From Dictyostelium discoideum (lineage: Eukaryota), in assembly GCA_000004695.1 (NCBI GenBank), contig CM000154.2, positions 1,888,001 through 1,952,000 on the forward strand: a stretch of DNA of 64,000 bases. Reading direction: 5' to 3'. The position numbers and the translations under genes were made by a program. How positions within the stretch are numbered: the stretch's first letter is position 1; each line of letters begins with the position of its first letter. The notes beneath the pieces are model-generated. The model worked only from the letters and a program-made list of their open reading frames with translations, ran no database searches and was not told the origin of the DNA. Positions 31,274-57,724 of this stretch are shown here, one piece after another.

Positions 31274-31916
31274 TTTTTCTTTCATTTCCAAAATAAAAGG
31301 TTAGTTTCCCTCTTTTTTAATATTAAATAACTAAAAACATTTTAAAGGCTCAATAAATTTTTTTTTTTTTGATATCAAAAATTAGGTTTCATAATCAAAA
31401 ATTTTTTATTTTTATATTTATTTTTTTTAATTTTTTGAAAAAAAAAAAAAAAAAAAAATTAGAGAAAAACAGATTAGGTGTGATTCAATCTCTCTTATTT
31501 AGATTTATTTTTTTTTTTTTTTTTTTTATTTTTTATTTTTTTTTATTTTTTTTTTTTTTTGTTAGTTAATTAGCAATAATAATAATAATAACAATAATAT
31601 ATTTTTTATTTTAGTTAATTATTATTATTTTTAATTTTTTTTTTATTGTTTTTTTTTTTTTTTTTTCTTTTAATATGAAATTAAAAATAACAACAAACAC
31701 ACACACACACACAATAATTTAATTAAATTTCTAAATTAGTGTAATTTCAAATATATGTTTAAATTCTATATGCATATAATTTAATAATAAAAAAGTATTA
31801 TCGCTCATATAATCACCCCAGAAAAAAAAAGAAAAGAAAAAAAAACACAATTATTTTCATAAAAAAAATTATCAATAAATCCTATTATAGTATATTATTT
31901 GAATTCAATTTAAATT

Positions 31917-34196: not shown

Positions 34197-34405
34197 GGTT
34201 TAAATTTTTTTTTTTTTTTTTTTTTTCCCCCCCCCCCCCCCCTAAAAAAAAAACAAAAAAAAAAAAATTTTTATATAAAAAAATCTCTCAAAAAAAATTT
34301 TTTTTTTTAATCTCCTTTTAAAAAAACGGGGGGGAAAAACCCTTTTTTTTAAAAAATTTTCCAAAAAGGGGGGGATTTAATTTTTTATTTCTCCAAACCC
34401 CCAAA

Positions 34406-34505
34406 NNNNNNNNNNNNNNNNNNNNNNNNNNNNNNNNNNNNNNNNNNNNNNNNNNNNNNNNNNNNNNNNNNNNNNNNNNNNNNNNNNNNNNNNNNNNNNN
34501 NNNNN
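34406..34505. other. Assembly gap (100 N) flanked by low-quality stutter sequence (about 33960-34640)
   Basis: Run of n. Flanks contain cccccccccccccc, ggggggg and similar runs atypical for this genome. Confidence 1.
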
Positions 34506-34888
34506 AAAATTGGGGAATTAAATTTATTATTTTCAAAAATTCCCAAAATTTTTTTTTAATTTAATTTTTTTTTTAAAATTAATTTTTTTTTTAAATTTTT
34601 TTTTTTAATTTGGGTTTTAAAAAAGGGAATTTTGTTTTTTTTTTTTATTTTTGGTTTTTTTTTTTTTATTTTTGGTTTTTTTATATTAATAACAACAAAA
34701 ACTCAACTCTTTGAAATTATTGTATCATGAATATATTATTTTTAAATCATTTTGTTCTATAAAAATATTTTCAGTTGGTATTTTATTTTTAGAAATTATT
34801 TTCTTAGTTTTTTTATTTTTTTTTATTTTGTTTTTTTTAATACATCACCCCCTACCTCAAAATCTCACAATTCAATCAAAAAAAAAAA

Positions 34889-34927
<39 letters not shown>

Positions 34928-35642
34928 CACCCACATATAAATAGTGTTTATTGATCTATTTAAAGAATTTTGTAAATTTGAAAAAAAAAAAATTAAAAAA
35001 AAAAATAAAAAAATAAAAAAATTTTTTAAATTAAATTTTATTTCATCCAAATTGGAAAAAAAAAAAATTATTAACAAAAAGAAAAAAAAAAAATATTGTT
35101 AACAATAATTAAAATAATAATAATAATAAAAATAATAATTTATTTATTTATTTTTTATTTATTTAAATAAATATAAAATATTATTTGTTCGATTAATGAT
35201 AATTATTATTACTTAAATTTATAAAATATACTTATTAATATATATATATATATTAATTTTTATTTTATATTTTATTTTTTTCAAATAAAATTTTTTTATA
35301 TAAAAATAGATTTTTTTTTTTTCATAATTAGAAGATTTAAAAAAAAAAAAAAAAAAAAAAAATTTAAAAAAAAAAAAAAAAAAATTATAATAATAATAAT
35401 ATTTATATTAACATATAAATAATTAAAAATTAGTATTTAATAGGGAAGGGATATATATTATACAACTATAAATTTTTAATAATAATAAATTATAATATTT
35501 TGAAAATAAAAAAAAAAAAAAAAAAGGAGAAAAAAAAAAAAGTCAAATAAATAAATAATATTAAATAATATATAATTAAAAAAAAAAAAAAAAAAAATTT
35601 AATAATAATAATAATAATAATAAAAATTATTAAAATAAAATT

Positions 35643-37769
35643 ATGTTATCAACTCATCATCACCAAGGGAATTCAAGCTCATCTTCATCATCTTCATCCC
35701 CATCACAGACAATTGGCGGATCGGATTTATCAAATATATCAGCACTCCCATTACCATTACCATCTATATTTACAACAGCACAAAACCAAATGAATCCACC
35801 AATTTTATTCCCACCAACTTCATCGTTGTTGGGAGGTTCATCAAACACACCATCATTTTTATTACCACCATCATCTATAATGTCATCAAATGTTTTTCCA
35901 TCTCATGATGGTCAATATCCAGATATGCCAAATATGGTTGATCAATATCAAATACATCCAAATCAAAATCCTCATTATAATTATCAATATCAATTAATGT
36001 TTATGCAACAACAAGCTCAACAAAATCAACCACCACAACAAAATCAACAACAACAACATCACCAACAACAACAACAACAACCACAACACCATCAACAAAT
36101 GCAACAACAACAACATCATCAACAAATGCAACAACAACAACAACATCATCAACAAATGCAACAACAACAACATCACCAACAAATGCAACATCATCAATTA
36201 CAACAACACCAACACCAACACCAACAACAACAACAACAACAACAACACCAACAACAACATCATCAACAACAACAACAACAACAACAACAACATCACCAAC
36301 AACAACAACATCACCAACATAGTCAACCACAACAACAACATCAACACAATCAACAACAACAACATCAACATAATCAACAACAACATCAACAACAACAAAA
36401 TCAAATTCAAATGGTACCACAGCAACCACAATCATTATCAAATAGTGGAAATAATAATAATAATAATAATAATAACAACAATAGTAATAATAACAATAAT
36501 AATAATAATAATAATAATTCACATCAATTAAATAATTTAACATTATCACAAAATAATACAAGTGGTAGTAATACACCATCACCATCAACTAAAGGTAAAA
36601 GAAAACATCATGAAACATCAAATTCAGAGAAAAAAGATTCATCTGGACAAACAATTCCAAAATGTACTCGTTGTAATGAAGCAGCATCATGGAAACATGA
36701 TAAAAGACGTTGGTGGTGTAAAGAATGTAAAAAAGCCTTTACTCCAGGTATTACCAAAATGCAACAAGTACCACAACAAGCACAACTTCAACCATTACAA
36801 AATCATAATCAAATAATACCACAACTTTGGGATTCTCAACAAAATAATAGTTCTCAAAATACTCCACCAACTCAACCACAAAACAATATGAATCAAATCA
36901 ATCATCAACTTTTACAACAACAACATCAACAAGCTCAACTTCAAGCTCATTTAAATTTAACAGCATCAAATCAACAAGTACCACCACAATTACAACAACA
37001 AATCAATGGTGGTTTACCAAATAATAACAATAGTTTAATCACTCAAAATACATTGAATTCATTATCAACCTCTGTATCATGTCCACCTTGTCCATTGTGT
37101 AGAGGTATTTCATCATGGAAACATGATAAAAAGCGTTATTTCTGTAAAGAATGTAAAAAACCATTTACACCTGTTGGTGCAGGACTTTCACCATCATCAT
37201 CACCTTCTTCACCAAAAAAGAAATCAAATATTACACCAATTACAACTTCATCAACATCATCATCTTCTTCAACTCCTTCAATTATAAACAACAACAATAA
37301 CAACAACGCAAATTCTTCTAAAAATAATACACCAAAAAAACAATTATCACCACCACCATCTGTTTTACAATCACCATCTTCCTCTTCAATCTCACAATCA
37401 CCACTTCAATTAAATTATCAAACTCCAACTTACTCACCAAATCCATCACTTCCATCAATTGGTGGAAATTTAAATTCCCTTGCAAATAGTATAAAACCAG
37501 ATGGTGGTATCTTAATATCTGGTCTATCTCCTCCAAAATCTTCATCATCATTAAATAATTTAAATTCTTTCTCAAATACTGGTGCACTTTTATCAAGTAA
37601 TGGAATTAATCTAGCCAATTTAGGTAATCCACTATCTCAATTAAATAAAAAACAAAAAAAGAGATCCGATAAAGATATAAATGATGGTGGTGTTCAAGTA
37701 TTGGTTAGTTGTGTCGATACTAATGTAAATAATTGTTCTTCAATTATACCTGATGGTGATAGTTGGTAA
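35643..37769 (+). CDS. Gln/His-rich protein (708 aa) with two copies of a CX2CX14CX2C zinc-ribbon motif (FCS/MYM-like). Candidate nucleic-acid-binding regulator
   Basis: Repeats KCTRCNEAASWKHDKRRWWCKECKKAFTPG and CPLCRGISSWKHDKKRYFCKECKKPFTPVG. Long (QQQQHHQQM)n-type tracts and Ser/Pro-rich tail. Confidence 0.7.
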   Translation: MLSTHHHQGNSSSSSSSSSPSQTIGGSDLSNISALPLPLPSIFTTAQNQMNPPILFPPTSSLLGGSSNTPSFLLPPSSIMSSNVFPSHDGQYPDMPNMVDQYQIHPNQNPHYNYQYQLMFMQQQAQQNQPPQQNQQQQHHQQQQQQPQHHQQMQQQQHHQQMQQQQQHHQQMQQQQHHQQMQHHQLQQHQHQHQQQQQQQQHQQQHHQQQQQQQQQHHQQQQHHQHSQPQQQHQHNQQQQHQHNQQQHQQQQNQIQMVPQQPQSLSNSGNNNNNNNNNNNSNNNNNNNNNNNSHQLNNLTLSQNNTSGSNTPSPSTKGKRKHHETSNSEKKDSSGQTIPKCTRCNEAASWKHDKRRWWCKECKKAFTPGITKMQQVPQQAQLQPLQNHNQIIPQLWDSQQNNSSQNTPPTQPQNNMNQINHQLLQQQHQQAQLQAHLNLTASNQQVPPQLQQQINGGLPNNNNSLITQNTLNSLSTSVSCPPCPLCRGISSWKHDKKRYFCKECKKPFTPVGAGLSPSSSPSSPKKKSNITPITTSSTSSSSSTPSIINNNNNNNANSSKNNTPKKQLSPPPSVLQSPSSSSISQSPLQLNYQTPTYSPNPSLPSIGGNLNSLANSIKPDGGILISGLSPPKSSSSLNNLNSFSNTGALLSSNGINLANLGNPLSQLNKKQKKRSDKDINDGGVQVLVSCVDTNVNNCSSIIPDGDSW

Positions 37770-38303: not shown

Positions 38304-38588
38304 TTAAAGTTTATTTCTAAAATCTGGTATTTCAGTTTTATAAATATTTTTTGATTTTATATAATTTAAAGCATTATCAGGCATTAAATATTTAACAGAA
38401 AATTTATTTCTTAATTTTTCTCTAATCTTTGTTGAAGATACATCATTTGTAATATCAGCAGGTATTAAATAAATTCCATCTTTATTCTTTGTTAATATTT
38501 CATTAATTGATATAATATCATTTAAATTTGAACCAATTCTAGGAATTACTGCAATACCAAAATTATCTTTTGATGATAATAAATTCAT
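38304..38588 (-). CDS. Nicotinamide/nicotinate mononucleotide adenylyltransferase (NMNAT), exon 3 (C-terminal, contains the SSTKIR motif)
   Basis: MNLLSSKDNFGIAVIPR...ITNDVSSTKIREKL. Acceptor aaaaataaag|ATG. Confidence 0.8.
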   Translation of the reverse strand: MNLLSSKDNFGIAVIPRIGSNLNDIISINEILTKNKDGIYLIPADITNDVSSTKIREKLRNKFSVKYLMPDNALNYIKSKNIYKTEIPDFRNKL

Positions 38589-38665
38589 CTTTATTTTTAT
38601 AATTATTATTATTTTATTTTATTTTAAATTAATTTTTATTTTTATTTTTTATTTTTAATACATAC

Positions 38666-38959
38666 ATCATTATCAGACCAAAGATTTGGTATATTAAAAG
38701 AACCTAATAAATCAGAACCACAAACCAATATTACATTTACTTTGCAAATGATATTTTTATTGATGTTTAAATAATTTTCAACACTTAATTTGATATGATC
38801 TAATACTTGTCTTGTTGGTGTGAATATTGGTTTGTCAGATTCAAATCTATCCATCATTAACCAATCTGAATCTTCAATTGATAATTCAACCATTGTTGTT
38901 CTATGTGATGATTCAATTAATGTCTTTTTATCATAGCCATCACCAACTGGTGATAAATA
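38666..38959 (-). CDS. NMNAT exon 2 (5' end truncated by the assembly gap): ...YLSPVGDGYDKKTLIESSHRTTMVELSIEDSDW...ILVCGSDLLGSFNIPNLWSDND
   Basis: Matches the conserved SPVGDAYKKKGLI...HR and LLCGADLLESF...PNLW blocks of NMNAT. Donor GAT|gtatgt at 38665. Confidence 0.8.
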
Positions 38960-39059
38960 NNNNNNNNNNNNNNNNNNNNNNNNNNNNNNNNNNNNNNNNN
39001 NNNNNNNNNNNNNNNNNNNNNNNNNNNNNNNNNNNNNNNNNNNNNNNNNNNNNNNNNNN
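38960..39059. other. Assembly gap (100 N) inside the NMNAT gene
   Basis: Run of n. Confidence 1.
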
Positions 39060-49600: not shown

Positions 49601-49775
49601 CTGGTTTCANNNNNNNNNNNNNNNNNNNNNNNNNNNNNNNNNNNNNNNNNNNNNNNNNNNNNNNNNNNNNNNNNNNNNNNNNNNNNNNNNNNNNNNNNNN
49701 NNNNNNNNNAAAATTAGATTCACATAATATAATGTTCAAGCCTCAATAATAAATAATAGATTTGGATTATTATCA
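49527..49775. repeat. Inverted repeat (about 60-bp arms) flanking the assembly gap at 49610-49709
   Basis: 49527-49590 aaaatccaaatctataatttattattgaggcttgaacattatgtgaatctaatttt is the reverse complement of 49711-49775, allowing 2-3 mismatches. Confidence 0.8.
49610..49709. other. Assembly gap (100 N)
   Basis: Run of n. Confidence 1.
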
Positions 49776-57141: not shown

Positions 57142-57672
57142 CTTAAGTCTCAGTAACAAACTATTGAAATTTGGTCAAATACCCCAAATTAGTTTTTTTT
57201 TTTTTTTTTTTTTTATCTTTATTCAAAAAAATAAAAATATAAAAAAACAAATTCAAATTTAAATCTGATAAATTTGGGTGAAAATAAAATAATAAATATA
57301 TAAATAAATAAATAAAAAAAATAAGGTAATTAATAATTGATATCGTTTTTTTTTTTTTTTTTTTTTTTAAAAAAAATTCCCCAAAAAAAAAAAAAAAAAA
57401 AAAACCAAAAAAAATTAAAAATTAAAAAAAGGGGGTTAAAAAAAAAAAAAAAAAAAATTTTTTTTAAATGGGGGGGGGGGAAATTTTTGGGGTTTTTTTT
57501 TAAAGGGAAAATAAACAAAAATTTTTTGGGAAATTCCCAAAAATTAAGGGGAAAAAAAAAAAAAAATTTCCCAAATTTTTTTTTTTTGGGGGGAAAAAAA
57601 AAAAAAAGGAACCCCCCCCCCCTTGGAAATTTTAAAAATTACCCAAAAAGGGAAAAAAAAGGGGGGGGGGGG

Positions 57673-57724
<52 letters not shown>

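Follow-up and report, generated by a model that had tools for sequence, protein, structure and literature searches.

A duplicated CX2CX14CX2C zinc ribbon in a Dictyostelium discoideum open reading frame very probably belongs to the G-box binding factor, GBF

The G-box binding factor GBF of Dictyostelium, the product of gbfA, is described in three reports (PMC6598861, PMC2257962, and PMC6873476) as a transcription factor with sequence-specific binding to G-box / CA-rich elements, required for cyclic AMP (cAMP)-receptor signalling to induce post-aggregative, prestalk, and prespore genes. It was isolated as a G-box-binding protein, according to the PMC6873476 supplement and PMC6598861, and GbfA binds G-rich motifs and is needed for cAMP to induce cprB and prespore genes (PMC6598861). 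The response element of GBF, (T/G)G(T/G)G(T/G)G(T/G), occurs as closely spaced pairs of sites (PMC2257962). Null mutants of gbfA arrest as mounds, with neither prespore nor prestalk differentiation (PMC6873476, supplementary file 5), and gbfA has been listed as a target of GtaC (PMC4506546). According to the PMC6873476 supplement, GbfA has a pair of putative zinc fingers, a statement for which Schnitzler et al. 1994 and Brown & Firtel 2001 are cited; by the same source, the two fingers were reported together with the gene in 1994 (Schnitzler, Fischer & Firtel). The GBF family has 6 genes, counts among four families of transcription factors that were first recognised in Dictyostelia, and is restricted to Amoebozoa (PMC6873476); its range in that work, Forbes et al. 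2019, is given as Dictyostelia plus Physarum, and Fig. S9 there aligns a "CxxC (RPT1) domain 1" and a "domain 2" of gbfA with those of orthologues and paralogues. Here we consider a stretch of 64,000 nucleotides (nt) of D. discoideum DNA (contig CM000154.2, positions 1,888,001 to 1,952,000; hereafter the window), in which an open reading frame (ORF) at 35643-37769 encodes two CX2CX14CX2C repeats and is, on our analysis, very probably gbfA.

The probability that this ORF is gbfA (DDB_G0288755) and that its two repeats are the DNA-binding modules of GBF can be put at about 0.93. In the published alignment (Fig. S9 of PMC6873476, the text of which was machine-read and is noisy), the DDB_G0288755 row for domain 1, GQTIPKCTRCNEAASWKHDKRRWWCKECKKAFTPGITKM...DSQQN, ends at residue 402, which is that same Asn in the window ORF, and the row for domain 2 ends with ...SPSSSPSSP at 524, which is that same Pro. 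Furthermore, both gbfA primers published for quantitative reverse-transcription PCR (Yamada & Schaap 2019, Table 2; PMC6598861) match with zero mismatches, TCAACCTCTGTATCATGTCC at 37065-37084 (+) and ATGGTGAAAGTCCTGCACC at 37176-37194 (-); the two sites flank the second ribbon, and neither match is expected by chance. BLASTP against 'G-box binding factor [Tieghemostelium lacteum]' (KYQ94449.1, recovered below as P0004) gives E=2e-42 over both ribbons and the C-terminal half, while a second segment (E=3e-20) places the N-terminal residues 37-106 at 48% identity with the T. lacteum N-terminus, a similarity that is visible too in three other orthologues (P0005-P0007). As read from their sequences, both proteins also finish with the motif GGVQVLV. 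No difference is seen between the window gene and D. discoideum GBF (DDB_G0288755), which has two CxxC 'RPT1' domains and a Q-rich N-terminus and whose orthologues span Dictyostelia and Physarum. The window itself is extremely A+T-rich (13-30% G+C), and its poly-Gln and poly-Asn coding tracts are dictyostelid-like.

The repeats that carry this identification are CTRCNEAASWKHDKRRWWCKEC (repeat 1; amino acids (aa) 341-362, nt 36663-36728) and CPLCRGISSWKHDKKRYFCKEC (repeat 2; aa 483-504, nt 37089-37154), which have the same CX2CX14CX2C spacing; repeat 2 is preceded by an additional Cys. Over the segment C...FTP, the two share 18 of 28 aa and 61 of 84 nt. Translated in six frames, the whole window contains three matches to the spacing, the third being a translated simple repeat, and 100 shuffles of the window that preserve local composition give a mean of 0.02; thus, the repeats are not due to chance. 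(A simple repeat at 18251-18409 (-) translates as poly-Cys/Tyr and so produces spurious CX2C...CX2C matches.) Both copies are kept in orthologues and paralogues, and they lie in a low-complexity setting that is Gln/His-, Asn-, and Ser/Pro-rich. An initial annotation, made from the sequence alone, had described just such a duplicated repeat, and within the 708-aa ORF its description proves right on every material point. Its count of 16 shared positions out of 24 is close to the identity measured here, and it correctly noted the low-complexity surroundings, namely the Q/H tract and the Asn- and Ser/Pro-rich stretches, and a basic patch, KGKRKHH, before repeat 1 only. The two copies are indeed spaced, although their starts lie 142 aa apart rather than the approximately 150 aa that it gave. 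The four-Cys zinc ribbon fold that it had proposed is supported by the AlphaFold2 model discussed below, which contains only β-strands.

A search of a word-indexed protein collection returned one metagenomic orthologue (P0001), in which both ribbons are kept, as are the segment GI(T/S)KMQQVPQQxQLQP and TPTYSPNPSLPS, a motif that is invariant between it and the window protein. With a four-ribbon profile, two exon fragments with a single ribbon were found on eukaryotic contigs (L002 and L003) assembled from the Sequence Read Archive, and these probably represent exons from homologues of GBF in other eukaryotes. There the ribbon (L002 1182-1346 and L003 897-1106) reads CPRC..AAWKHDAKGRWWCKxCxxAFTPGITC, with a loop that is one residue longer; both contigs have about 36-40% G+C and fragmented ORFs, and neither was found to carry a second ribbon.

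When 1.84 billion representative proteins were searched exhaustively by HMMER with a six-ribbon profile, 62 proteins were retrieved at E<=1e-3; their groups were assigned from their sequences and cluster names. They include two-ribbon orthologues of GBF (P0004-P0007), GBF-like paralogues whose core is RHDKRRWWCK (P0012-P0014, one from Acytostelium), Physarum-type proteins in which the first ribbon is longer by two residues (P0009, P0011, P0017), short paralogues with one ribbon (P0025, P0029, P0041), and several metagenomic eukaryotic proteins. A Pelomyxa schiedti protein (KAH3744340.1) is also a member, and the family consequently reaches Archamoebae. The remaining matches lie outside the family: IS1/InsA-like ribbons, archaeal-looking acidic proteins with tandem ribbons, and C2H2 fingers, which match through the second knuckle only and are false positives that arise because the (K/R)xxCKECxKxF knuckle resembles that of a C2H2 finger.

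When 30 family ribbons are aligned, all four Cys are invariant, as are His18 and Arg22, and conservation at D19, F32, T33, and P34 is 90% or higher. Both window ribbons align column for column with the 28 others, match the published alignments of domains 1 and 2, and carry the signature (W/R)(K/R)HDK(K/R)R(W/F)(W/Y/F)CKxCKKxFTP. The loop between the knuckles, 14 residues in the window ribbons, ranges from 13 to 16 across the family, and the distance from one ribbon start to the next from 47 to 142 aa. Across species, ribbons of the first copy are distinct in type from those of the second, which read CPxCxG..(C/S/G)W(K/R)HDKKRW.C(K/R).C(K/R)(K/R)PFT(P/T) in the orthologues; therefore, the duplication is older than the divergence of the species compared. 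The GBF-like paralogues (the DDB_G0278407 group, that is, P0012, P0013, and P0014) resemble GBF in having two ribbons with CX2CX14CX2C spacing and an RHDKRRWWCKxCxKxFTP core, but they have Arg in place of Trp before (K/R)HD, a fixed, short linker (starts 47-48 aa apart), and unrelated flanks.

These results place a core motif that the initial annotation could not: it belongs to the GBF family. The suggestion that SWKHDK(R/K)R..C..CKK.FTP might define a small, lineage-restricted zinc-ribbon family is borne out, and the profile search confirms that the motif is present in orthologues; however, that family has already been published. Since the motif falls within a characterised zinc-finger family, one of the outcomes that the annotation itself had named as fatal, its claim of novelty is refuted. 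The gene, its two zinc fingers, and their family are all published, and finding them once more contributes nothing new to it.

Apart from the ribbons, no conserved, basic, structured module is shared by the whole family, and the ribbons are very probably the DNA-binding domain of GBF. The surface likely to contact DNA would consist of (W/R)(K/R)HDK(K/R)R(W/F)(W/Y/F) before the second knuckle together with CKxCKKxFTP at and after it. In the most economical model, each ribbon would read one half-site of a G/T-rich pair, (T/G)G(T/G)G(T/G)G(T/G), by means of its conserved basic and aromatic hairpin and its CKKxFTP segment; the odds that there is one ribbon per half-site are about even. The low-complexity linker is flexible and of variable length, and tolerance of a variable spacing between half-sites is therefore proposed. 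Activation or regulation may be the task of the conserved terminal motifs and of the Gln/His-rich half at the N-terminus.

Two points should be set against the identification and the function that follows from it. An exact look-up of the 708-aa sequence in the protein collection searched returned no match, so the support for the identification comes from orthology, from the primers, and from the published alignment; in addition, the pairing of one ribbon with one half-site and the choice of DNA-contacting residues have been inferred. Nevertheless, nothing contradicts the assignment to gbfA.

No published fold assignment for the GBF finger was found, and a 2025 copy of Pfam contains no GBF model. 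Neither the whole protein nor its repeats taken singly had a significant match in Pfam, and a sequence search of solved structures returned no match to the window protein. In AlphaFold2, ribbon 1 was modelled with a mean predicted local distance difference test score (pLDDT) of 79 using 6 sequences and 86 using 30, with short β-strands only, a predicted pattern that is of the zinc-ribbon type. All of the Foldseek matches are generic ribbons, such as eL43, Rpb9, and PhnA, and the structural neighbours include the ZBR domains of Emi1/Emi2 and the IBR domain of RNF216. The likeness to FCS/MYM-type fingers that had been remarked upon initially, with GRF as a further candidate, finds no counterpart in these comparisons. 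Neither FCS/MYM nor GRF is listed for the whole protein or the isolated repeats at the Pfam reporting limit of E<=10, a limit at which the HMMER filters still discard most matches above about 0.1, or among the 25 Pfam families most often matched by the 30 family ribbons, and the relationship was rejected. A C2H2 finger was likewise rejected, there being no HxxxH after the knuckle and no helix in the model. The GBF finger is of the general zinc-ribbon class, with a sub-threshold likeness to Dof and to IS1595 and membership in neither.

GBF, Dof, and IS1/IS1595 ribbons have in common the pattern CPxC...(K/Q)(P/R)R-aromatic-x-CKxCxxx(F/W)T, and it can be asked whether the GBF ribbon belongs, with a short loop, to an ancient class of DNA-binding ribbons that includes the other two, which we consider unlikely. 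With the 30-ribbon family profile, hhalign scores the Dof domain of CDF1 at 27.7 (87% probability), ribosomal eL43 at 26.9, and the TFIIB, Rpb9, TFIIS, GATA, and Sec23 ribbons at 11-15; the IS1-like ribbons reach 38-57, scores that are biased upward because these controls were chosen by the same profile. Given these controls, a deep homology with Dof or IS1595 is unlikely to be demonstrable from sequence by itself.

A narrower proposal, that the ribbons are diverged plant Dof domains and GBF an amoebozoan Dof-like factor whose inter-knuckle loop is 7 residues shorter, is distinctly unlikely. The hhalign probability speaks for it, as do weak matches to Pfam Zn_ribbon_Dof (E 0.07-0.6) and a common second knuckle, R-(aromatic)-(aromatic)-CKxCxxx(F/W)T in GBF and PRHFCKACQRYWT in CDF1. 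However, the spacing in CDF1 is CX2CX21CX2C, a loop of 21 residues against 14 in GBF; the best score with the Dof model (PF02701), 13.8 bits (E=0.068), is far under the gathering score of 26.6, and only 3 of the 30 family ribbons match at E<=1. Moreover, the hhalign score for Dof is about that for eL43 and less than those for the IS1-like ribbons, and Dof is not among the Foldseek matches listed. The DNA targets also differ, as Dof factors, which have one finger per protein, recognise AAAG, whereas GBF recognises G/T-rich boxes.

That the ribbons descend from the IS1/IS1595 transposase ribbon (Zn_ribbon_IS1595, PF12760), or are themselves of that type, and thus represent a domesticated transposase DNA-binding module, is very unlikely, even though this is the steadiest of the Pfam affinities. 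PF12760 is matched by 22 of the 30 family ribbons at E<=1 (best E=3.6e-4) and by window ribbon 1 at E=0.008-0.018; the profile search retrieves IS1/InsA-like ribbons, for example, CPQCNSTEVRKHGQHLGKQRWYCKSCGFAFT (P0056), which attain the high hhalign scores given above; and the likeness extends over CPxC...(K/R)(H)(G/D)...(Q/K)R(Y/W)xCKxCxxxFT. Nevertheless, the scores of the window ribbons (15.5-16.5 bits for ribbon 1 and 11.8 bits for ribbon 2) fall short of the PF12760 gathering score of 25.4, and the bias in the control scores applies here in full. The IS1-like loop is 4-5 residues longer than that of GBF, and these ribbons are joined to helix-turn-helix or transposase domains that are absent from GBF, no transposase domain having been found by Pfam in GBF proteins. 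Convergence is also easy for short, Cys-rich ribbons.

Finally, the idea that the repeats mediate protein or RNA contacts, like IBR/ZBR or ribosomal ribbons, with DNA binding located elsewhere in GBF, might draw on the structural neighbours (Emi1/Emi2 ZBR, RNF216 IBR, and eL43) and on weak Pfam IBR_1 matches in 8 of the 30 members, but it is highly improbable, as the ribbons are the sole strongly conserved basic structured modules in all members, including short paralogues with little else (P0025, P0029, P0041), Pfam detects no other DNA-binding domain in the window protein, and GBF was isolated, by the sources cited above, through its binding to the G-box.

The archaeal-looking tandem-ribbon proteins in the search (P0008, P0010, P0019, P0022, P0023, P0045) share with GBF the CX2CX14CX2C spacing, and they likewise have an aromatic residue at position 6 of the loop and (K/R)(W/Y/F)YC before knuckle 2, but they have 4-10 copies, are very acidic, and are without the HD, KK, and FTP signature. 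Their significance in the search arises because many weak repeats sum up. In these proteins and in P0016, in which tandem ribbons are fused to a Ser/Thr protein kinase domain, the ribbon pattern is CPxC-x4-(W/Y)(I/V)xxYxR(W/Y)YCxxCxxY. Matches to Pfam Zn_ribbon_19 are clear, at 66.5 bits for P0022 and 36.3 bits for P0019, perhaps registering across adjacent repeats, and IS1595 is near threshold.

The features of the gene and its upstream region are collected in the table. Outside the ribbons, the Q/H tract is far shorter in the orthologues P0004-P0007 than in the window protein, whereas KGKRK or KRK is kept at the equivalent place in all four; judged from its residues, this patch is a candidate nuclear localisation signal or contact with the DNA backbone. 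At the other end of the protein, KKQKK...NGGVQVLV is also present at the C-terminus of T. lacteum GBF, and relatives of the form (E/L)VQVLV are seen in P0005 and P0006.

Table. Features of the ORF assigned to gbfA and of its upstream region (positions in the window)
Feature	Position	Strand	Residues	Sequence or remarks	Basis
gbfA coding sequence (assigned)	35643..37769	+	708 aa + stop	single uninterrupted ORF	ORF listing, published alignment, primers, T. lacteum BLASTP
Conserved N-terminal region	35751..35960	+	aa 37-106	LPLPSIF...PDMPNMVDQYQIHP	BLASTP vs T. lacteum GBF
Gln/His-rich tract	36003..36410	+	aa 121-256	66% Q, 21% H	computed composition
Poly-Asn tract	36447..36518	+	aa 269-292		read from sequence
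Basic patch	36591..36611	+	aa 317-323	KGKRKHH	seen in sequence
Zinc ribbon 1	36654..36749	+	aa 338-369	IPKCTRCNEAASWKHDKRRWWCKECKKAFTPG; Cys ligands 341, 344, 359, 362	
Zinc ribbon 2	37080..37172	+	aa 480-510	CPPCPLCRGISSWKHDKKRYFCKECKKPFTP; Cys ligands 483, 486, 501, 504; extra Cys 480	
Ser/Pro motif	37398..37457	+	aa 586-605	SPLQLNYQTPTYSPNPSLPS	conserved in P0001
C-terminal basic patch and GGVQVLV motif	37647..37706	+	aa 669-688		conserved in orthologues
G-box/CAE-like element	34926..34943	+		CACCCACA directly 5' of TATAAATA; about 700 nt upstream of ATG	sequence read

Upstream of gbfA, C-rich islands stand in near-pure A+T DNA, CATCACCCCCTACCTCA at 34843-34859 and TTCACCCACA at 34926-34943. 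The latter is a G-box/CAE-like octamer that reads TGTGGGTG on the minus strand and abuts TATAAATA, and a scan for KGKGKGKG gives a match at 34928-34935 on the minus strand. Tentatively, this element may be a promoter element, either a GBF autoregulatory site or a core promoter. The G-box pattern is found 56 times in the window against 4 expected, a count that is inflated because of simple repeats, including the one at 18251-18409 (-), (TG)n, and homopolymer runs; the (TG)n microsatellites and long runs of G or C among these repeats lie at 16036-16053, 31698-31713, 34227-34242, and 57469-57674.

Five runs of exactly 100 N, either assembly gaps or masked sequence, interrupt the window (13191-13290, 14703-14802, 34406-34505, 38960-39059, and 49610-49709), and two of them flank gbfA at about 1.1 kb on each side. 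Pfam gave no match for the ORFs neighbouring gbfA. Downstream, at 38304-38893 (-), two adjacent ORFs contain ...ILVCGSDLLGSF... and ...DVSSTKIREKL...YLMPDNALNYI; as an impression only, they could be exons of a cytidylyl/adenylyltransferase-type gene, possibly for nicotinamide mononucleotide (NMN) adenylyltransferase, and Pfam, run on each ORF separately, gave no match at E<=0.01.

In Dictyostelium, GBF acts as a central switch of development, and to what has been published about it this analysis adds a fold model, the Pfam and PDB affinities of its fingers, and a family member in Pelomyxa (Archamoebae). The structural gain is modest: the zinc-ribbon model, together with the Dof domain of CDF1 bound to DNA (PDB entry 8xuf), taken as its closest solved relative, as a template, could guide mutation of the conserved WKHDKRRWW and CKKxFTP segments. 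If a kinship with Dof and IS1595 were true, DNA recognition of the Dof type would be older than the split between plants and Amoebozoa, or else would have been acquired from transposases.

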